The translations under genes and the position numbers were made by a program. 64,000 bases of DNA from Eledone cirrhosa (lineage: Eukaryota), in contig OZ024742.1 of assembly GCA_964016885.1 (NCBI GenBank), positions 326,492,001 through 326,556,000 of the forward strand. The letters are read 5' to 3'. Each line of letters opens with the position of its first letter. Position 1 is the first letter of the stretch. Positions 12,785 to 55,379 of the stretch are shown here, piece by piece. The notes under the pieces were generated by a model. That model had not been told where the DNA came from, did not search any database, and saw nothing but the letters and a program-made list of their open reading frames with translations.

Positions 12785-12910
12785 GTGAAGGCGTGTGGCT
12801 GAGTGGTTAGAGAATTGTATTCGCAATCGTAAGGTTGTGAGTTCGATTCCTGGACCAGGCGATGCGTTATGTCCTTGAGCAAGACACTTTATTTCACGTT
12901 GCTCCTTCTA
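12785..12910 (+). mobile_element. tRNA-headed SINE of a second family (Meta-domain-like)
   Basis: A-box TGGCTGAGTGG, B-box GTTCGATTCC, then TGTCCTTGAGCAAGACACTT; relatives at 3265-3375 and 28740-29010. Confidence 0.75.
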
Positions 12911-13129
12911 CCTGGAGTTGCGACCGATAGATAGTATTAGCAATTGGAAAGACCAACGGAAACATTGTTCCCTCGGTCCGATTTGACAACAAAGTCGATC
13001 GTTCCTTTATATATATATATAAAATTATAAATATAAGCTATCGCCGTATTTTGACTAAAGAAATTAAAGAAATTATTTAGCCTGATAGTGGGGTTAAGAA
13101 CTCTCGGAGAAATGGAAAAAGATGAGTAT

Positions 13130-13200
13130 TGACGTACATGGGAGTCGAACCCACATCTTTGGTTATCCAGACCACTGTGCTACCATTACACCAACACATC
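13130..13200 (-). ncRNA. tRNA-like cloverleaf (anticodon-position GGA, short variable loop) embedded in a repeat; not a canonical tRNA gene
   Basis: GATGTGT/GTACGTC acceptor, GTGT/GCAC D-stem, TGGT/ACCA stem with CTGGATA loop, GTGGG/CCCAT T-stem with TTCGACT loop. Confidence 0.75.
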
Positions 13201-13489
13201 ACCCGTCTACTTCCATTCAAATTAGAAGCTATAATCTTAACAACTGTAATGTCATGTAAGAATGTTTTCGAAACAGCGAGCGAGTTTGAAATTATAAATA
13301 TAAGCCGTATATATCGTATATATTGCCGTATTTTGACTGAAGAAATACTCAACTTTTTCCATTTCTCCGAGGGTTCTTAACCCCACTATCAGGCTAAATA
13401 ATTTTTGTTATTTCTTTAGTCAACATACGGCGAGAGTTTATATTTATAATTTCAAACTCGCTCGCTGTTTCGAAAATATTCTTACTTGA

Positions 13490-13556
<67 letters not shown>

Positions 13557-14072
13557 TTGGGGAGGGTGATATTGTTGTAATAATATTGCCAGAATGAATA
13601 ACAGAACACACTCACTGTTTGGTTGGTTTTCGCTTCTGTATCTTTTATATCAGTCCTCAATGTTTACCATTGACTGACCAACGGTCAAAAATACAGATAT
13701 AATATACATATATCTATAATATATCTATATTATATCTGTATTTTTGACCGTTGGTCAGTCAATGGTAAACATTGAGGACCGAATGAATTAACTGATATAA
13801 AAGCGAAAACCAGCCAAACAGTGAGTGTGTTCTGTTATTAATTCTGGCAATATTATTAGAACAATATGACCCTCCCCAAGTATAACAATATTTGTTTCGA
13901 CACACGATTTCATATCAAAAACCTCGCAAAACAAATATATATATATATATATATATAACGTTTTTGAAATATCCAGTTCTGCGTTTACAGATTGACTTTG
14001 TTAGTTTCAGAAGATCCCGTTAAGGGTGAAGCAGCGATTCTTTGCTTAAACTTTAATCTGTTATTTTAATAA

Positions 14073-17173: not shown

Positions 17174-17527
17174 TGCATGTATGTATAAATTTCCTTTGAA
17201 TTCAGTAAATGGAAGGATTAAAGTATTCCTCTTTTACTTTACAAATCATATCTTTTGTTTTCGATTTTCTTTCTCCTACTTTCTCTCTCTCTCCCCCTCT
17301 CTCTCTCTCTCTCTCTCTCTCCATCTCTCTCTCTCTCCCTCCCTCTCTCTCTCTATCATTCTCTTTGTTTCTCTCTCCCTCTTTATCACAAACAAACATT
17401 GATTTTATTATATGTATATATATATAAATGTTGGAGTCTCTCGTCGAAAATGACGTGTGGGTGTTCAGCAGAAGATAAAGCAAATGCAAATCCAAGGCAA
17501 GAACCAGTTGGTGGATTTTTAACAAAG

Positions 17528-17892
17528 TTAATTGTTTCTACTTTTGGCACAAGGACAGCAATTATCCCAGTTCATTACTGGTACTTTATTTTATCGACCC
17601 CGTAAGGATGAAAGGCAAAGTTAACCTCGGTGGGATTTGAACTCAGAACATAAAGGGGCGTAACTCTATGCTGCAAAGCATGGCGTCCGACCTTCTTTTT
17701 AACAAAGATAATTGTTTCTACTTTTGGCACAAGGCCAGAAATTATATCAGTATATTACTGGTACCTTATTTTATCGACCTTGTAAGGATGAAAGGGAAAG
17801 TTAACCTTGGCGGGATTTGAACTCAGAATGTAAAGGGAAATAACTCTATGCTGCAAAGCATGGCGTCCAACCCTTTACTGATTCTGCCAATC
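17528..17892 (-). mobile_element. Two tandem Nin/Deu-core SINEs sharing a triplicated target site
   Basis: Copies 17528-17695 and 17710-17892; ttttaacaaag(t/a)taat occurs at about 17517, 17697 and 17893. Confidence 0.9.
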
Positions 17893-23164: not shown

Positions 23165-26100
23165 GTGTTGTTGGTAGTGTAGTCCTTCCTGGCGGTGGCG
23201 GTGGTGTGTGGTGGCGGTGAGGTTGTTGGTGGTAGTGTAGTCCTTGCTGGCGGTGGCGGTGGTGTGTGGTGGCGGTGAGGTTGTTGGTGGTAGCGTAGTT
23301 CTTGCTGGCGGTGGAGGTGGTGTGTGGTGGCGGTGAGCTTGTTGGTGGTAGCGTAGTTCTTGCTGGCGGTGGAGGTGGTGTGTGGTGGCGGTGAGGTTGT
23401 TGGTGGTAGCGTAGTTCTTGCTGGCGGTGGAGGTGGTGTGTGGTGGCGGTGAGGTTGTTGGTGGTAGTGTAGTCCTTCCTGGCGGTGGCGGTGGTGTGTG
23501 GTGGTGGTGAGGTTGTTGGTGGTAGCGTAGTTCTTGCTGGCGGTGGCGGTGGTGTGTGGTGGCGGTGAGGTTGTTGGTGGTAGTGTAGTTCTTGCTGGCG
23601 GCGATGGGGTGTGGTGGCGGTGAGGTTGTTGGTGGTAGCGTAGTTCTTGCTGGCGGTGGAGGTGGTGTGTGGTGGCGGTGAGGTTGTTGGTGGTAGTGTA
23701 GTCCTTCCTGGCGGTGGCGGTGGTGTGTGGTGGCGGTGAAGTTGTTGGTGGTAGTGTAGTTCTTGCTGGCGGCGGTGGGGTGTGGTGGCGGTGAGGTTGT
23801 TGGTGGTAGTGTAGTTCTTGCTGGCGGCGGTGGGGTGTGGTGGCGGTGAGGTTGTTGGTGGTAGTGTAGTTCTTGCTGGCGGTGGCGGTGGTGTGTGGTG
23901 GCGGTGAGGTTGTTGGTGGTAGCGTAGTTCTTGCTGGCGGCGGTGGGGTGTGGTGGCGGTGAGATTGTTGGTGGTAGTGTAGTTCTTGCTGGCGGCGGTG
24001 GGGTGTGGTGGCGGTGAGGTTGTTGGTGGTAGTGTAGTTCTTGCTGGCGGCGGTGGGGTGTGGTGGCGGTGAGGTTGTTGGTGGTAGCGTAGTCCTTGCT
24101 GGCGGTGGCGGTGGTGTGTGGTGGCGGTGAGGTTGTTGGTGGTAGTGTAGTTCTTGCTGGCGGCGGTGGGGTGTGGTGGCGGTGAGGTTGTTGGTGGTAG
24201 TGTAGTTCTTGGTGGCGGTGGCGGTGGTGTGTGGTGGCGGTGAGGTTGTTGGTGGTAGCGTAGTTCTTGCTGGCGGCGGTGGGGTGTGGTGGCGGTGAGA
24301 TTGTTGGTGGTAGCGTAGTTCTTGCTGGCGGCGGTGGGGTGTGGTGGCGGTGAGGTTGTTGGTGGTAGTGTAGTTCTTGCTGGCGGCGGTGGGGTGTGGT
24401 GGCGGTGAGGTTGTTGGTGGTAGCGTAGTCCTTGCTGGCGGTGGCGGTGGTGTGTGGTGGCGGTGAGGTTGTTGGTGGTAGTGTAGTTCTTGCTGCGGCG
24501 GTGGTGGTGTGTGGTGGCGGTGAAGTTGTTGGTGGTAGCGTAGTCCTTGCTGGCGGTGGCGGTGGTGTGTGGTGGCGGTGAGGTTGTTGGTGGTAGCGTA
24601 GTTCTTGCTGGCGGCGGTAGTGTGTGGTGGCGGTGAAGTTGTTGGTGGTAGTGTAGTTCTTGCTGGCGGTGGAGGTGGTGTGTGGTGGCGGTGAAGTTGT
24701 TGGTGGTAGCGAAGTTCTTGCTGGCGGTGGAGGTGGTGTGTGGTGGCGGTGAAGTTGTTGGTGGTAGCGAAGTTCTTCCTGGCGGCGGCGGTGGTGTGTG
24801 GTGGCGGTGAGGTTGTTGGTGGTAGTGTAGTTCTTGCTGGCGGCGGTGGGGTGTGGTGGCGGTGAGGTTGTTGGTGGTAGTGTAGTCCTTCCTGGCGGCG
24901 GTGGGGTGTGGTGGCGGTGAGGTTGTTGGTGGTAGTGTAGTTCTTGCTGGCGGCGGTGGGGTGGGGTGGCGGTGAGGTTGTTGGTGGTAGCGTAGTTCTT
25001 GCTGGCGGCGGTGGGGTGTGGTGGCGGTGAGGTTGTTGGTGGTAGTGTAGTTCTTGCTGGCGGCGGTGGGGTGTGGTGGCGGTGAGGTTGTTGGTGGTAG
25101 CGTAGTTCTTGCTGGCGGCGGTGGGGTGTGGTGGCGGTGAGGTTGTTGGTGGTAGTGTAGTTCTTGCTGGCGGCGGTGGTGTGTAGTGGCGGTGAGGTTG
25201 TTGGTGGTAGCGTAGTTCTTGCTGGCGGTGGCGGTGGTGTGTGGTGGCGGTGAGGTTGTTGGTGGTAGCGTAGTTCTTGCTGGCGGCGGTGGGGTGTGGT
25301 GGCGGTGAGGTTGTTGGTGGTAGTGTAGTTCTTGCTGGCGGCGGCGGTGGTGTGTAGTGGCGGTGAGGTTGTTGGTGGTAGCGTAGTTCTTGCTGGCGGC
25401 GGCGGTGGGGTGTGGTGGCGGTGAGGTTGTTGGTGGTAGCGTAGTTCTTGCTGGCGGTGGCGGTGGTGTGTGGTGGCGGTGAGGTTGTTGGTGGTAGCGT
25501 AGTTCTTGCTGGCGGTGGCGGTGGTGTGTGGTGGCGGTGAGGTTGTTGGTGGTAGCGTAGTTCTTGCTGGCGGTGGCGGTGGTGTGTGGTGGCGGTGAGG
25601 TTGTTGGTGGTAGCGTAGTTCTTGCTGGCGGTGGCGGTGGTGTGTGGTGGCGGTGAAGTTGTTGGTGGTAGCGTAGTTCTTGCTGGCGGCGGCGGTGGGG
25701 TGTGGTGGCGGTGAGGTTGTTGGTGGTAGCGTAGTTCTTGCTGGCGGCGGCGGTGGTGTGTGGTGGCGGTGAGGTTGTTGGTGGTAGCGTAGTTCTTGCT
25801 GGCGGCGGCGGTGGTGTGTGGTGGCGGTGAAGTTGTTGGTGGTAGCGTAGTTCTTGCTGGCGGTGGCGGTGGTGTGTGGTGGCGGTGAGGTTGTTGGTGG
25901 TAGCGTAGTTCTTGCTGGCGGTGGCGGTGGTGTGTGGTGGCGGTGAGGTTGTTGGTGGTAGCGTAGTTCTTGCTGGCGGTGGCGGTGGTGTGTGGTGGCG
26001 GTGAAGTTGTTGGTGGTAGCGTAGTTCTTGCTGGCGGCGGCGGTGGGGTGTGGTGGCGGTGAGGTTGTTGGTGGTAGCGTAGTTCTTGCTGGCGGCGGCG

Positions 26101-26485
26101 GTGGTGTGTGGTGGCGGTGAGGTTGTTGGTGGTAGCGTAGTTCTTGCTGGCGGCGGCGGTGGTGTGTGGTGGCGGTGAAGTTGTTGGTGGTAGCGTAGTT
26201 CTTGCTGGCGGTGGCGGTGGTGTGTGGTGGCGGTGAGGTTGTTGGTGGTAGTGTAGTTCTTGCTGGCGGTGGCGGTGGTGTGTGGTGGCGGTGAAGTTGT
26301 TGGTGGTAGTGTAGTCCTTCCTGGCGGCGGCGGTGGTGTGTGGTGGCGGTGAAGTTGTTGGTGGTAGCGTAGTTCTTGCTGGCGGTGGCGGTGGTGTGTG
26401 GTGGCGGTGAAGTTGTTGGTGGTAGTGTAGTTCTTGCTGGCGGCGGCGGTGGTGTGCGGTGGCGGTGAAGTTGTTGATGGTAGTG
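23165..26485. repeat. GT-rich minisatellite, about 58 units of 55 or 58 bp
   Basis: Unit ggtggtagYgtagttcttgctggcgg(Ygg)cggtggKgtgtggtggcggtgaRgttgtt; period confirmed by the 2-nt shift per 60-nt line. Confidence 0.97.
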
Positions 26486-36928: not shown

Positions 36929-37879
36929 GACATAATGATTGCGGAGAAGATTTCTTAACCAATCGGTCATGGTATGTCTATAGAGAACCAATAGGCATTG
37001 TACTACCTACTCATGAGATTTTTTTTAGCTTACAAATTATAGTTATTTTCTCAACCAAGCTTCCTACACCTTCCTATAAATGTATTTCCTTGACGCTCTC
37101 GACATTTCGAATCTTCGAGCTTCACACACGACGTTTGTTTATATTTTATAAAAGCTGTTTGATTTAACTCCTTAATTTAGACGGTAAAATGTTTCCAGGT
37201 GTCCCTTAACTCAATGGTTAGAACTCCTAGTCAGTATCTGAGAGATACAGAGTTTGATACTTTGTAGCGGCCACCACAAAACATATTGGCCGTCTCTAAG
37301 GGTCTTTACTCGATTTTTATAAGATATTTTATAGAAATTGAATGTAATTGCAGCTATCTTTTGCACTCAAGCTTCCTACATCTTATACATTTTAAAACGT
37401 TTGAAGGAGTTGTGCATATAAAATAAAAACATTGATATGACAAGCCAAAAAAACCTAAAATTTATTTGCAGATCTCAAGGGACCGCGGACCCCAGAGTGG
37501 CAGCTGCTGGATTTTCCCTTTGTAACATCGTATTTTCTAAAAGAATTACATTTTGCTTTTCCATTTTGCTTTTTTTTTTTCGAAAAATTTGATATTTAAT
37601 TAAATAGAAATCAAATTAATTAATTCTAAAATAGATTGCCCAAAAAACTTGTTTAACGGTTTCTGTGTTGTTTTCTTTTCTTTTTTTTTTTCTGCTTTCA
37701 ATCTTTTCTAGTTAATTTGATATTTTTTTAATTTTGGAACTAGTATTAATCACCCAGATCACTTTATGATGTTAACATTCGGCCTTTCCTATATTTGGAG
37801 AATTAAATGATAAAAACATGCGAAGGCCCTATGTCAGGGGTCTCCAACATAGTCGATATCGCCTCGTAATTATATATAT

Positions 37880-43544: not shown

Positions 43545-43770
43545 GAATTTGTGTGTGTTCCTTAAGCCAACTACTTTGTTTTCACTTCTCGCTACACGCT
43601 TTCTAGAGAGAAGTTATTGTTGATCAGCGGCTCCTTATTGTAGTGGTTAACGCACTCACCCGGCATCCAAGAGATATGATTTTCGATATCTCCTAAGCAC
43701 TTCTCTCCACATTCATTGTCTCTGAGCGTTCTTTACCTGATTTTCTGAAATATTTAGAGTGATCTACTAA

Positions 43771-43983
43771 TATTGGTTTCTTATATAGGCACAAAGCCAG
43801 TGATTTTGGGGGAGGGGAAATTCGATTAAATCGTCCCCAGTGCGTGACTGGTACTTTATTTTATCGACCCGATGAGGATGAGAGGCAAAGTTAACCTCGG
43901 CGGGATTTGAACTCAGATAATAAAGGGCCGTAACTCTTTGCTGCAAAGCATGGCGTCCGACTCTCTACCGATACTACCAATCC
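43771..43983 (-). mobile_element. Young Nin/Deu-core SINE
   Basis: 17-bp TSD agtgatctactaatatt (43758-43774, 43984-44000). Confidence 0.92.
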
Positions 43984-44003
43984 AGTGATCTACTAATATT
44001 ATG

Positions 44004-44177
44004 ATCGGTAGAGGGTCGGACGCCATGCTTTGCAGCAAAGAGTTACGGCCCTTTATGGTCTGAGTTCAAATCCCGCCGAGGTTAACTTTGCCTTTCATCC
44101 TTACGGGGTGGATAAAATAAAGTACCAGTAATACACTGGGATAAATGCTGGCCTTGTGCCAAAAGTAGAAACAATTA
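44004..44177 (+). mobile_element. Young Nin/Deu-core SINE, inverted relative to both neighbours
   Basis: Consensus match; TSD attatgatc. Confidence 0.92.
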
Positions 44178-44338
44178 TGATCATTTGAGAAACACACATC
44201 TCACACTTTAATTGCTTCTTTATTTAGCCACTTTCTTTATATACATGTGTGTATGTGTATGTGTGTGTGCAAGCGCGTGTGTGTCTGTGTGTGTGTAATG
44301 TTAAGAAATGGAATAATATGACAAGGCGAAGTAGTTAA

Positions 44339-44520
44339 TAATTGTTTTTAGTTTTGGCACAAGGCCAACAATTATTCAGTGCATTACTGGTACTTTATTT
44401 TATCGACCCCGTAAGGATGAAAGGCAAAGTTTACCTCGGCGGGATTTGAATTCAGTCCATAAAAGGCCGTAACTCTTTGCTGCAAAGCATGGCGTCAGAT
44501 CCTCTACCGATACTGGCAAT
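44339..44520 (-). mobile_element. Young Nin/Deu-core SINE
   Basis: Consensus match. Confidence 0.9.
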
Positions 44521-50099: not shown

Positions 50100-53000
50100 A
50101 AATTAAACAATCGAAGTCCTCAATAGGGAGGTGGCGTTGACGTGGGTCGCACACACTCCCGAAAAAATGTGCAACCCTCCTCCTCAGGAGCACAAAGAGC
50201 GGGTACTCCCTTCCTCTCCTCCTTCTCCTCTCTCACCTTTCATAAAACTTGCTGTGGTACAGCACCTCTCGCTCCATACAGATTCTTCTTCCAAAGTGGT
50301 ATTTGAAAAAAAGAATCAGTTGTTGGCCGGAGAGAAAGGTGTCTGACCTCAGCCCTTTTAACCTCGTCCACCATACAAGCTCTTTCGCCATAGCTATCAC
50401 ACAAAGGAAAACCGCCTCTCCTTCGTTTTTGAAGGAGGGTGCCAGTTTGATCATGACAATGGATTCGGTGGTCAACCGGATTGGTCCCACCCGCGACAAT
50501 AGTCGTTCTACTTAGCCCCACAGGTCGGTAACGCCCGGGCAGTGTACGAATGCGTGCGCGACGGTTTCTTCGTCTCCGTCTCGCACGCATCTCGGACAGA
50601 TCTTTTTCGAAGGGTCCCTGCACGGGTGCCCATGTCTGTAGAGCTTGTCTCGTACTGGTAGAGCTCCTCGGTAGCACTGCCAGGCCAGGGACTTTTGGAA
50701 GTTGTCCATCCGTCCCGGGCGGAAGGTCCTACAGATCATACTGGCCAGTTTGTCTTCCTCTACGCCTAGAGTTTCTCGAAGTGGAGTCTCCACTGATCGC
50801 CGGATCCGCCTACCAGAGGGCTGTGAGCTCCTGAGCACATTCAATGTGCCAGTCGCCCATTTTCCTCGGTCTTCGCTTGACCCAGGACTGCAGCTCGGTC
50901 AGCGAGACGAGTCGTGGGAAGGCTCGCCTCACGAACGGGGCCCACACCGGTTGTCCGGTGAGGAATACGTGGAGATGCCGCAGACTGAGCGCTTGTTTGC
51001 GCATCGTCAGCCACGGCATCTCAAGCCCTCCGTTGGAAGGGTGTTCGCAGAAGATGGATCTTCTTACCAAAGGAGCCCGTTTCTTCCAAAGGAATTGGAA
51101 GAGCGCGCGCTCCATTTTAGTGAGCGTTTTGGCTGGACAGGGCACGATGGTAAAGAGATAGTAGATGACGTACGCTATAAAAGTATTCGCCACCTCCGCT
51201 CGACCTTTCAAGGATATTTTGCACTAGGCCCACTTCTGGGTGAGTGCAAACACCTTGGCCGTCACCTCGTTCCAGTTCCTCTCCACCTGGCGGTCAGGAC
51301 CAAACCAGACCCCGAGCAGCTTTACCGGTCCTTCCGTCCAGCGTCCGACGACGTCATCGGAAGGCATCAGTTTGCCTCTCCACGTTCCGAGTTGCAAACC
51401 GACGGATTTGTCCCGGTTCAGCTTCGCTCCTGTGAACCTTTCGTATTCCTCCAGTAAGGTGCCGATCTCACAGATTTGCGAGGTGCTCGACACCATTACT
51501 GTCACGTCGTCGGCGTAGGCCGATGCTGCTTTCTGCAGTCCTGGTTACAGAGGGATGCCCTGCAATAGCTCCATCTTCCGCAGTAGTGGCTCGAGAGTCA
51601 GTACGTACAGAAGGGAGGACAGAGGGCATCCCTTCGGATGGGTCGCGTGATATGGAACGGCTCCGAGAGGTAGCCGTTCACCTTGACCCTTGAGCAGATG
51701 TTGCTGCTGTGCATTGCAGCAATCCAGCCCCTCAACACGGGTCTGAAGCCTGCCGCCTCGGGCACCGCATCCAGGTAACGATGGTCAACCCTATCGAAAG
51801 CCTTAGGCTGATCCAAGTTGATCAGGGCCCCACCGAAGCCGCGTTTACACCCAACCATCTCTACGATGTATCTCATGCGGTGGAGGTTGTGTATGGACCT
51901 GGTCGAGATTACGCATGTCTGCGCTTCTCCCACCAGGTTTTTGACGACAAGCGCCAGCCTCTTTGCCAACACCCTGGCCAAAATCTGTAACTCTGTGTTT
52001 AGCAGAGTTATGGGCCGGAAGTTACCTATGTCATCCCCCTTATTCTCATCCTTCCTGACTAGCGTGACTACGCCCCTGGTCACAGAACTGGGAATTCTCC
52101 CGTTCTGCTGCCAGTTGCAGTAGACCGCTTCCAGGAGAACAGAGAACAAGTCCGACATTGCTACGTAAAATTCGTAGGGTAGACCGTCGAGACCTGGAGA
52201 TTTGCGTTTGCCGCATAGGCACAGCGCGTCTCCTATCTCAGCGGCTGAAATCGGCCTTTCACAGAACTTCGCCTCGCTGTCCGAGAGTCACGGCAGGCCG
52301 TCGAGGTATGGACCGAAATCCATAGCCCCTCCCGGCGCGCCGCCCTTCCCGAACAGTTGAGCAAAGTGCCGCTGAAAGGCCGCGCACATCTGCTTCGGTA
52401 CACGTATCAAGAGTCCGTCTTGGTCCTTCAAAGACCGAATCGTGGACTTGTTACCACTTTTCGCCTCCGTCACCCGGGCCCAGCTAACAGCTTTGGCTCC
52501 CTCGTTACCCAGAGCACGTATTTTCCTTCTGACAACGCAGCCCTCGTGCTGTGCGTCGAGAACTGGTCCAAGGCTGTTTTCGCTGCTAGCACGCTGGCTA
52601 CGTTGCCACTTCTAATTGCATCTTCTACTTTATCTACCAGTTCCTTCTCGGTCCTATTTCTATCTAACGCTAATTCTTTGCTAAAAACTAACGAGTCTAA
52701 TCTAACTGCCCTCTTGAGAGAGTACCACCATCTGTTGTTGACAATGGCCCCTGTCAAGTGCGGTTTAACTAAAGTGCTAATCCGTCTACTGTAGGCTTTG
52801 CATGTCGGTAACGACAAGTTCAGCTTCCAGTAGCCGGGTCCCTGTCTATGGATTCTATCAAGGTTTACCATGCAGGTCACTAGTTTGTGATGTGAATAGG
52901 CAACCATGAACATTTGTGGACAGCTTAACATGTCCCTATCATTATTTCTAACTAGAACCCTATCTAGGTACGATCTAGATGTTCCGCTGAGATTAGTCCA

Positions 53001-53551
53001 CGTCCACTGTGGCACGGTCGTAAAATCTAGTCGATATATATCGGCCAGGTCAAATCGGCCGATTAACTGTTTGAGGCTGTTACACCCCCTTTATCGGCAC
53101 ATGCTCCCACATAGTCCCAACGTGCATCTAGGATTCCATTCCAGTCCCCCACTAAAAGCAAGGAGCAGGACGTTCCCAGAAAAGTCTCTAGACGTTTGAA
53201 GAAGTCTGGCCGCGGAGTCCTGGATGGGGCATATGCGCCCACAAGCCTGAATTCTCCACTTTCACTACCGTCAACGTCTAGTACCACCAGTCGACCCTCC
53301 GGGTCCAGATGTACCGTCTGTGTTACGAGGCCCAGGTGTTTCCTCAGCAAAACGGCAACCCGTTCCCACCTCCCGGCTGACATAGAGATGCGTAGATCTC
53401 ATAGTCATCGAAGATGGGAGCCAGCTGTCGCTTGCTGTCGATCCTGGACTCGCAGATGGCTGTGCGACCTGAGGTCGTTTAAGAATTTGCCCTGTTTCCA
53501 GGGCATCCCCAGGCCGCGCACATTCACACAACCGACTCTTACATTCGCCAT
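50100..53551 (-). pseudogene. Tx1-like ORF2 (APE endonuclease + reverse transcriptase + zf-RVT), multiple frameshifts and stops
   Basis: Starts MANVRVGCVNVRGL; motifs GAYAP, LLVGDWN, SYLDRVLV, GPGYWKLN, NFRPITLLN, LDQPKAFDRVDH, YADD (gtcgtcggcgta at about 51507-51518), CPRC..ETVAHAFVHC. Confidence 0.93.
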
Positions 53552-53591
53552 GTCGGTGAGGAAGCGTTGGAAAAGAAAAGGAAGAGTTCAC

Positions 53592-55379
53592 TCACCTTTT
53601 CGCTTCCTGGAGAGCGAGCCGCTCAAGTTCCATGGGGGTGTTGGAGGGGTTGTCTGGGTGGGTGGTAGTTTCCGGTGGGGTGGGGATGGAGATGTTTGGT
53701 GGGGAGGGGGTGTCTGGTGGGATGGGGCTGTCTGGGGTGGGTAGACATTTGAGAAGGACGCGGTTAAGTGGTTTCACGCAGGAATTCCCCACGTCCTTTT
53801 CAAATGTTTCTTTTAGGGACCTATAAGTTTGTATAGGGACCCTAATCAGTTTTAGGTTCGGTGCTTTATTATTTTTATTAGAGTTTGCGAAAGTTTTCCC
53901 TTCCGTTTTCACCGAAGGGTTGTTCGTGATGGTCTCCATTAGTGTTTTGTTTTCAGTGTTTATGTATGCGTAAGTGTAATTTTCTTGTGTTGTGTTTGTT
54001 TTTGTCTGTAGTGCTTGTGTGTGCTTTCGTTTTGTTGTAGGTATTTTGTTTTCAGGAGGTGGGGGTTTTGGTTGTGATGTTTTGTTGTTTGTGTTGGTGG
54101 TTGTATGTTTGTGGTAGTGTTTGCTGGTTTTTTGATTTTGTGGTGCCTTTTTTTTCTTTTCGAGCGATGGGGTTCTCGTTCGTCTTCACTCGGTGATGAC
54201 GAGATAGCCTCATCTGTTGTATGGTCTGTGTGATTGGGGAGGGGTATGTCTTGGGGAGCTGTTGTGTCTGTAAGTGATTTTGCAGTGGTTTGAGGTGGAG
54301 TTGGGTTGGGTGGGACTGTGTTTATTGTGGTTATTTTTGTGTGTTGGTGTTGTTGTTGTTGTGGTTGTGGTGGTGGTTGTGTTATTTTGATGGGTGTCGG
54401 CAGAAGAGTCTTTTTTTTACTCATTAATTGAGAACAGGAATCCCTCAGGTGACCTCTGCTAAAGCAGTGGTAACATGAAGGCCGACGACCCTCAACCGAA
54501 AGGTTTATGTAGGTGAGTCCGTCCAGGAGTACACGTTGTGGGATCCTAGCTATTCGTTCTGGGCTCATTTGTACCAGAACTTCAACGCTCGTCCCATTAA
54601 ATACATCTGTGGGGGACTTTCCTACTGAAAGTATTCTGTCTTCATCAAAATTGATGAAGCCGCACAGTATCCACCATATGTTTACCTTTGGTGTGACACT
54701 TGTGATTCTGATCTTTTGTGATCTTTTTCCCATGTATGTGGGGGAAAAGGTATACAGGTTGGATACAATTGGCGACACAGAGTAATTTTGGGCCGTCACT
54801 TGATCCTTCGTGAGTACCGAAATACTCCCAAAGCGTTTGCCTCTTTGAATGAATGAAATATCATTCATTGAATTTTTGAAAACCAGTTCAATTTCTTTCT
54901 GTGACAATTGGACCTGTTTTCGGGTAGAATTAGGAACTGTCCTAAAAACTATCGTTTTGAGGGCAGTTTCCTTACGAATTTCTACAGGGGAATTAATGCT
55001 GAAAGCACCATTCTTTTCAAAAGTAACATATCTCCTAGCGTCCTTTAGAAGTTGTTCGGCATTTGATATGTCGAGATATGTTAATTCCTCCTTTTTTCTG
55101 AACTGTCTGTGCAAAGGATATTTTTGGTTTCTTTGTGGAATTGTCCGTGTTGGTGGTGTTGTCATTATTGTTGTTATTGTTGTTGTTGTTCTTGTTGTCA
55201 CTGATGTTGATATTGTTCGTATTTTCCTTGGTGTTGGTGTTGTTGTCTTTTATGCTGATATTATTGGTGTTGTCTTTATTTTTTTCTTTGTTGTTGTTGT
55301 CATTGTTGTTTATCATCATTATTGGTGTTGTTGTTTTTATTTTTGTTGTCATTGTCCTGTTTGGTGTCATTTGTGTCAT
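53592..55379 (-). pseudogene. Tx1-like ORF1 (gag-like), frameshifted
   Basis: ORF pieces 55035-55379, 53960-55201 and 53592-53939; Asn/Thr-rich N-terminus, SFAQTV motif, zinc knuckle CYHCFSRGHLRDSC, Pro/Thr-rich tail. Confidence 0.85.

Follow-up and report, generated by a model that had tools for sequence, protein, structure and literature searches.

The window, a stretch of 64,000 nucleotides of Eledone cirrhosa DNA, contains at positions 13022-13492 one copy of a dispersed repeat family, called here family A; this assignment is confirmed, and the arrangement is not a chance pattern. The direct repeat, the inverted arm and the flanking (TA)n tracts described in a first-pass annotation are all present at 13022-13492. 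The left arm is a full 267-bp unit (13022-13288, minus strand, which is the RNA sense), adjoined by the next tandem unit, 5'-truncated and with a 15-nt local insertion (13289-13346, minus), so that a partial tandem resembling a pseudo-LTR is formed. An inverted 5'-truncated arm (13344-13492, plus) starts just 3' of the tRNA-like segment and ends at the tail end S2. A 17-base direct repeat occurs at 13022 and 13289, as annotated, and its spacing corrects the length of the unit from about 268 bp to 267 bp. The inverted arms (13022-13130 and 13344-13452) are 93% identical, and a second inverted pair (13249-13303 and 13438-13492) 95%. The fixed 3' end S1 (13022-13024, minus) abuts the left (TA)n tract (13006-13021), and S2 (13485-13492), which closes a 33- to 40-nt tail running from S1 to S2 (13453-13492, plus), abuts the right one (13489-13555).

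The unit is numbered from the first tRNA base (+1, window position 13200), with the tRNA-like head occupying positions 1-71 and a period of 267. The head (13130-13200, minus) comprises A and B boxes, GGA at the anticodon position and a variable loop of 4 nt. The 71-nt cloverleaf without a long variable arm recognized earlier at this place is borne out by a score of 49.7 bits with the Rfam tRNA model (cut-off 29) and by ARAGORN, which calls tRNA-Ser(GGA) there as the only gene in the window. Its acceptor stem has 7 pairs, three of them G-U, and its anticodon stem is paired at four of five positions. The D arm of the family A head resembles that of tRNA-Gln of the same genome, the best overall match to tRNA-Gln being 42/72 in a comparison covering the Gln and Thr genes. 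Agreement of isotype with anticodon and a canonical anticodon loop, both expected of a functional cytosolic tRNA, are missing: the serine anticodon GGA is combined with the 4-nt variable loop, and position 37 is a U. A working tRNA-Ser is unlikely to be made from the family A head, owing to GGA together with the short variable loop.

On the 5' side of the head lie the leader strand (13201-13217, minus), predicted to pair with the trailer strand on the 3' side (13111-13127, minus), and a putative TATA-like hexamer, recognized by its letters alone, ca. 30 nt upstream of the tRNA (13229-13234, minus). The 5' ends of copies suggest a Pol III start near 13204 (position -4, minus). The trailer includes a run of five T residues resembling a Pol III terminator (13116-13120, minus), and 3' of the run there is a short hairpin motif (13090-13103, minus) common to family A and two sister families, B and C. 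The fold of the window copy shows no excess of stability over shuffled sequences (z 0.03), and within family A the stems have changed more than the rest (79 vs 55 changes per 1000), such unprotected stems being as expected of dead copies. A-to-G changes, sought as a sign of editing at an RNA step, show no strand excess (21.6 vs 24.1 per 1000).

Other repeats in the window comprise a TA-flanked fold-back element adjoining the family A copy and unrelated to it (13545-13960), the end of which resembles the 3' end of a hammerhead-bearing Penelope-like element (PLE) at locus L048, a GC-rich array of 58 copies of a 58-bp tandem unit with 94% matches and a strong strand skew (23166-26483), and LINE fragments on the minus strand with endonuclease and reverse transcriptase frames and an ORF1-like frame (50200-55250).

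Copies of family A, their ends and targets

A search of the 3.0-Gb genome with 13021-13345 gave 2251 candidates, of which the best 40 were scored, and a single 26-base motif of the S2 end has 348 exact matches, as compared with none for the reversed control. Family A comprises at least hundreds of copies and is young, dispersed and non-coding, with a median identity to the consensus of 95% (80 arms). The copies are composed of head-to-tail units, which abut directly without an internal part between them and are usually joined 5'-to-5' to an inverted arm; the longest tandem, at locus L031, has 10 units. This array (L031:2631-5412) is built of ten 272-bp units in which two variants alternate, suggesting expansion at the level of dimers.

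In a first set of 48 loci (41 head-to-head, 7 with a single orientation), 3' ends of the 97 arms concentrate at S1 (positions 172-182, 39/97) and S2 (positions 205-225, 41/97), and there is a minor site near position 131. S1 and S2 are 33-42 nt apart and lie ca. 105 and ca. 140 nt beyond the tRNA. One of the 97 arms ends at the tRNA end and none at the T run, which contradicts the earlier idea that RNase P or Z cuts set the ends of the element. One S1 and one S2 occupy opposite outer ends in 31 of the 41 head-to-head loci. A second, position-based sample comprised 89 loci anchored on the S2 motif, taken in genome order from the first 94 listed of the 348 matches; five of the 94 were skipped (locus already sampled or already encountered in the family search), three of these being long copies, so that long arms are slightly under-counted. 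An adjacent inverted 5'-truncated copy is present in 71 of the 89 anchored loci (41 of 48 in the first set), and 44 of these 71 inverted arms, opposite the S2 anchor, end at S1. A microsatellite lies within 4 nt of the end in 85 of the 89 loci (the anchor chose the ends, not the flanks), and poly(A) at the end in none of the 89. In 18 copies no inverted arm was detected, and in 12 of them (TA)n is found also on the 5' side. Target-site duplications are unreadable inside (TA)n. The absence of a hammerhead, claimed earlier, is upheld by a search of 52 family A units, in which the core pattern occurs once, antisense and through a single-copy change, and by Rfam ribozyme models, none of which reaches its cut-off in four family loci.

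The 5' ends of the anchored arms are distributed unevenly. Counted 5'-ward as stops among arms at risk, they amount to 9/89 at positions 212-140, 4/80 at 139-105 and 12/76 at 104-72, then to 40/64 at 71-52, the 20 nt of the T arm and the 3' acceptor strand, to 1/24 at 51-7, and to 12/23 in the 10 nt around +1 (-4 to +6); 11 of the 89 arms go past the tRNA 5' boundary and 6 are longer than one unit. Both pile-ups exceed the neighbouring rates (P 8e-26 for the T arm and acceptor, P 8e-8 for the +1 boundary). All 18 perfect 4-base snap-backs are situated at palindromes 53, 61 or 66, inside the zone of the T arm and the 3' acceptor strand; the nine palindromes at 104-203, which the enzyme reaches first, have none. 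The 11 snap-backs at position 61 represent five subfamily haplotypes, hence they do not descend from one re-copied master. The pile-ups suggest a template with a tRNA-like fold or with the m1A58 modification (position 56 here), a known block to reverse transcriptase.

Eighteen 5' ends, 12 of main and 6 of inverted arms, lie at the tRNA boundary: one at -5, four at -4 (one of them ambiguous), one at -2, six at -1 and six at +2 to +6. An initial count of 2/97 5' ends near +1, made on copies picked for a full-length score, was overturned by the position-based sample. Judged by these ends, the template RNA likely begins at about -4 to +1. RNase P cannot have produced the ends upstream of -1, whose positions agree with Pol III starting on the G at -4. 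The tRNA had been regarded as internal to the element, unlike a SINE head, and a start of members at the tRNA 5' end as evidence against the proposal; this is borne out in part, as 12 of the 89 position-sampled copies do start at that boundary, so that for the RNA the internal position does not hold, and it holds only in copies of more than one unit, including that in the window, where the tRNA looks internal for this very reason.

A start of the RNA at the tRNA (12/89 copies) and a SINE-like size are what would be seen in an ordinary tRNA SINE dependent on a LINE and ending in a (TA)n tail, whose inversions came from twin priming and whose tandems from later DNA duplication, as in a SINE-derived satellite; tandem repeats derived from SINEs are known (PMC10702118, at the level of its abstract). 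Such an origin is very unlikely, being largely refuted by the pairing of S1 with S2, i.e. two fixed 3' ends, one per side. It is also at odds with the duplication of the same 3' part in both arms, the continuation of the tail into the next unit, the inversions in 71 of 89 loci, and (TA)n on the 5' side of 12 of the 18 copies without a detected inverted arm. Moreover, an ordinary tRNA-derived SINE of the same genome, used as a control, is mostly full-length (the head is present in 45 of 68 copies) and has visible target-site duplications. SINEs of this ordinary kind are abundant and present in the window at 43780-44510, 17516-17872 and 12785-12890, some of them head-to-head or in tandem; one of these served as the control. 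At L010:1772-1940, the head of another tRNA-derived SINE continues from the T arm of a family A arm, a fusion such as a template switch at the B-box homology would produce.

Sister families B and C and the leader-trailer stem

The two further tRNA-like modules noted earlier, at 37198 and at 43635, are genuine; each represents an older family that shares with family A its layout and the motif following the tRNA. The first is a decayed, partially tandem copy of family B (37023-37403, plus; unit ca. 308 bp, tRNA-like head from ca. 37200), and its flanking direct repeat caagcttcctaca proved to be the partial-tandem duplication of the ca. 308-bp unit. The second is a decayed copy of family C (43545-43790, plus; unit ca. 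280 bp, head from ca. 43630). The genome yields 431 candidates of family B and 47 of family C; their copies are 72-88% identical to the consensus and include tandem as well as inverted pieces, with 3' ends that cluster. Every pairing of the three families shows homology over positions 73-140 (0/300 shuffles as good in each); over the rest of the unit it is not clear-cut (40, 6 and 21 of 300 shuffles). The T stem has 5 bp in family A and 6 bp in B and C. An RNA model built from B and C gives family A 41.5 bits and genuine tRNA genes more, 48 bits, and therefore provides no proof of kinship of A with B and C. In A, B and C alike, a putative reading frame that runs over the ends is reminiscent of how a PLE ORF begins.

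In each family the leader is predicted to pair with the trailer, by which the acceptor stem is extended by 17-20 pairs of differing sequence. The predicted duplex has an energy of -19.8 kcal/mol in A, -27.6 in B and -17.6 in C (4, 0 and 6 of 300 shuffles as good), as against -1.9 to -8.5 kcal/mol for the flanks of ten tRNA genes taken as a control. The pairing is better on the sense than on the antisense strand in all three families, and the predicted stem is interrupted at the -1/73 junction. In passages of PMC8457004, an extended stem broken at -1 is tied to RNase P cleavage of mascRNA and pre-tRNAs. The mascRNA of MALAT1 resembles the predicted family A structure in having a tRNA-like fold with such a leader-trailer stem; it differs in forming the 3' end of an immobile Pol II lncRNA, whereas family A is mobile, with RNase P cutting only a possibility.

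Maintenance of the stems across copies, on which the first-pass annotation had staked its proposal, is found in part. Across 27 copies of B and C, 73.9% of cells are paired, with 69.7% in shuffles and 41-46% in slid controls, and double changes are seen in the D stem, the T stem and the leader-trailer stem, these measures being inflated by relatedness. Against maintenance speak the lack of an excess of pairs with a double change in B and C (19 vs 19.6 in shuffles, 355/500) and the unprotected stems within family A. In most B and C copies, one pair of the anticodon stem and two of the acceptor stem are disrupted.

The tRNA-like segment might be a mere passenger, a tRNA gene or SINE head caught in a non-autonomous PLE and without a role in its cycle, a reading favoured by the neutral decay of the family A stems, the z of 0.03 of the fold, the retention of a terminator-like T run, and scores below the Rfam tRNA cut-off in all 20 B and C loci. 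It is rendered highly improbable by the sharp pile-ups of 5' ends at the T arm and +1, which indicate that the template RNA was structured and began there, and by the three diverged families, which keep the fold and the flanking stem with different sequences.

Proposed transcription and copying of the family A RNA

The preferred explanation, with a probability of about 0.65, is that family A is a SINE-like RNA with a tRNA head, transcribed by Pol III and reverse-transcribed in trans by a PLE. In this genome family A has the annotated PLE-type architecture of partial tandems and an inverted arm, with S1 and S2 ends in (TA)n. A role of the tRNA fold as a Pol III promoter, also proposed at the outset, is likely in view of the A and B boxes, the T run and the 5' ends of copies. 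According to the parts of PMC8557442 on their structure, PLEs form partial tandems with an inverted 5'-truncated copy, often have a 30-40-bp tail at one end, and prefer (TA)n, and Naiads, reported from octopus, have no hammerhead. In the in vitro work of PMC11167929, the PLE enzyme cuts and extends both strands, two internal RNA start sites bound the tail, and copying proceeds without need of hammerhead cleavage; S1 and S2 match these two reverse transcription start sites.

In the proposed cycle, the A and B boxes would start Pol III at about -4 to +1 in tandem master loci, and part of the transcripts would pass the T5 run into the body and tail. The PLE enzyme, by analogy with PAc biochemistry, would then nick both strands of a (TA)n tract, with reverse transcription from two internal sites, one per strand, which would correspond to the two observed ends S1 and S2; one start site per strand would leave the tail at one outer end. 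The observed pile-up may reflect reverse transcription stalling mostly in the folded or m1A58-modified T arm, the stalled cDNA snapping back or joining the opposite arm to give fold-backs, and about half of the cDNAs that get past the T arm would run off the RNA 5' end at the tRNA start. Rarer read-through transcripts of more than one unit would give partial tandems and so restore the upstream flank, like a pseudo-LTR. A hammerhead would be unneeded in such a cycle, and RNase P trimming to +1 optional; this trimming is possible, considering the extended acceptor stem and the 5' ends near +1, and cannot give the 6 of 18 boundary ends situated 2-5 nt upstream of +1.

Two features are loose ends of the Pol III model, the T5 run and the 17-pair stem, and both would fit better if RNase P cuts longer RNAs. 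A T5 run right after the tRNA should end most Pol III transcripts before S1 and S2. A start at -4 would leave only 4 of the 17 leader-trailer pairs, so that the stem is unexplained by the monomer.

These features are accommodated by a reading in which tandem arrays are transcribed by Pol II or through host read-through, RNase P cuts the transcript wherever a tRNA-like fold occurs, and the PLE copies the product. The fold would then replace the hammerhead as the maker of monomers, and the leader-trailer stem would join the monomer ends and could allow circles. To Pol II the T5 run is no obstacle, and the leader-trailer stem requires RNA from upstream of -4; the predicted duplex is strong in A, B and C in comparison with tRNA-gene flanks, its break at -1/73 has the geometry reported as needed for RNase P in the passages of PMC8457004 on cleavage, 12 of the 18 boundary ends are at -1 to +6, and arrays of 10 units exist. 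This reading is nonetheless unlikely: the other 6 boundary ends are at -2 to -5, arms of more than one unit are found in only 6 of 89 anchored loci, the alternating variants of the long array suit DNA-level expansion, 3' ends at the RNase Z site are limited to 1/97, and circular RNA, lacking a 5' end, would give no accumulation at +1.

A doubtful but more far-reaching variant is that the tRNA mimic acts both as Pol III promoter and as definer of an RNase P-cut monomer, with the leader-trailer stem holding the ends for ligation, in a long-lived PLE-dependent lineage. If the mimic does both jobs, the copies would document in the genome the stalling of reverse transcriptase at a modified tRNA T loop.

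Relation to Penelope-like and other elements

PLEs are numerous in the genome, which contains 10595 GIY-YIG candidates, of which the best 150 were scored, with reverse transcriptase and GIY-YIG in one frame. A hammerhead-type family, PLE-A, has two ends ca. 40 nt apart in (TA)n and a tail unlike that of family A, and no 3'-end similarity to family A was found in 11 of its loci. The family A unit profile did not match any of 50 GIY-YIG loci (of the 10595 candidates), and a comparison of the 3' ends of family A and PLEs, with the ends taken at the first TA tract, was within the null. In another PLE family, that of locus L100, the last 8 bases are those of S1, a weak match equalled by 78 of 2000 shuffles and 218 of 7452 random windows; a tail end was not seen in 20 of its loci, all chosen for running on into the ORF. 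Among the examined loci, N-terminal-endonuclease (Naiad-type) frames amount to one doubtful hit, and of two 12-base end motifs looked for in the PLE supplement of PMC8557442, one was absent and the other had a single hit, in an unrelated context.

The L100 family is young (L100:4309-7122, minus, with L101, L105, L108, L109, L111 and L274-L293; ca. 96% identity) and has long open frames with a C-terminal GIY-YIG after paired cysteines, a ca. 1.1-kb pseudo-LTR and (TA)n targets; a sense-strand hammerhead core was not found in it. At L033:3901-5250, a 5'-truncated PLE (reverse transcriptase through GIY-YIG) and a family A arm with its 3' end at the minor site meet 5'-to-5', a single case which may represent a two-template insertion or a deletion.

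Family A shares partial tandems, an inverted copy, a one-end tail and (TA)n targets with endonuclease-bearing (EN+) PLEs and their non-autonomous derivatives Naiad, Neptune and Chlamys MRC1, as described in part of PMC8557442, where non-autonomous Chlamys copies are also head-to-tail. In contrast to EN+ PLEs, it has no ORF and has a tRNA-like head as a putative Pol III promoter. The non-LTR retrozymes, in the portions of PMC7761336 and bioRxiv 10.64898/2026.07.22.740005 that describe them, likewise have non-coding tandem units of 150-300 bp and are thought to be moved by PLEs. Unlike theirs, the family A unit has no type I hammerhead, and its 5' ends point to a linear RNA starting from the tRNA and not to a self-cleaved circle; identity with retrozymes was rejected by the absence of the hammerhead.

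The closest idea to family A is found in the TRIMp3 elements Helenus, Ajax and Cassandra, presented in PMC10886601, from which the following points are taken. They are non-autonomous and have, like family A, a small-RNA-derived Pol III promoter inside the repeat and disagreement of isotype and anticodon. They differ in having two LTRs, PBS, PPT, 4-5-bp target-site duplications and dependence on LTR elements, in place of which family A has PLE ends and a tail; identity with TRIMp3 was rejected since family A units abut without an internal part and end at S1 and S2 in (TA)n. The tRNA-derived SINEs (SINE2) are short and have, as in family A, a tRNA-like head with A and B boxes at the RNA 5' end and an unrelated body. 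Family A differs in lacking a LINE-type 3' tail and visible target-site duplications, in having two fixed 3' ends and a circularly permuted tandem unit, and in the loss of the head from most copies. SINE-derived satellites, to judge by the abstract-level description in PMC10702118, apparently have no fixed PLE ends, unlike family A.

Family A works like a non-autonomous PLE and, in its head, like a SINE. A tRNA-headed PLE-dependent element was not found in the open literature, and Repbase or Dfam may list such families under another label. Pol III parasites are known of LINEs, namely SINEs, and of LTR elements, namely TRIMp3; a PLE-moved tRNA-headed element, if true, would complete the set. 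Family A speaks for the idea that PLE-type copying can do without hammerheads, and, being a natural template of 267 nt on which two start sites are mapped, it is a compact substrate for the poorly understood biochemistry of PLEs. From DNA alone, the mapped 5' ends of the copies show where a germ-line RNA started and how it was folded.

Repeats like family A inflate tRNA gene counts with odd G34 anticodons. A second repeat of the genome (L043, L045-L053, L160-L165), ca. 1.8 kb, AT-rich and located in (TA)n, has a terminal hairpin at one end, an internal inverted repeat, and an intact-looking internal tRNA scoring up to 71.5 bits, with the G34 anticodons GGC, GAC, GGT and GTC; of the 16 highest-scoring Rfam tRNA hits genome-wide, 10 belong to it. 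Its layout differs from that of family A, and its leader-trailer pairing is weak. Near 168.21-168.26 Mb (G000:C1, loci L297-L301) there is a tRNA-Gln cluster, in which copies with a CTA anticodon, resembling amber suppressors, alternate with TTG copies.
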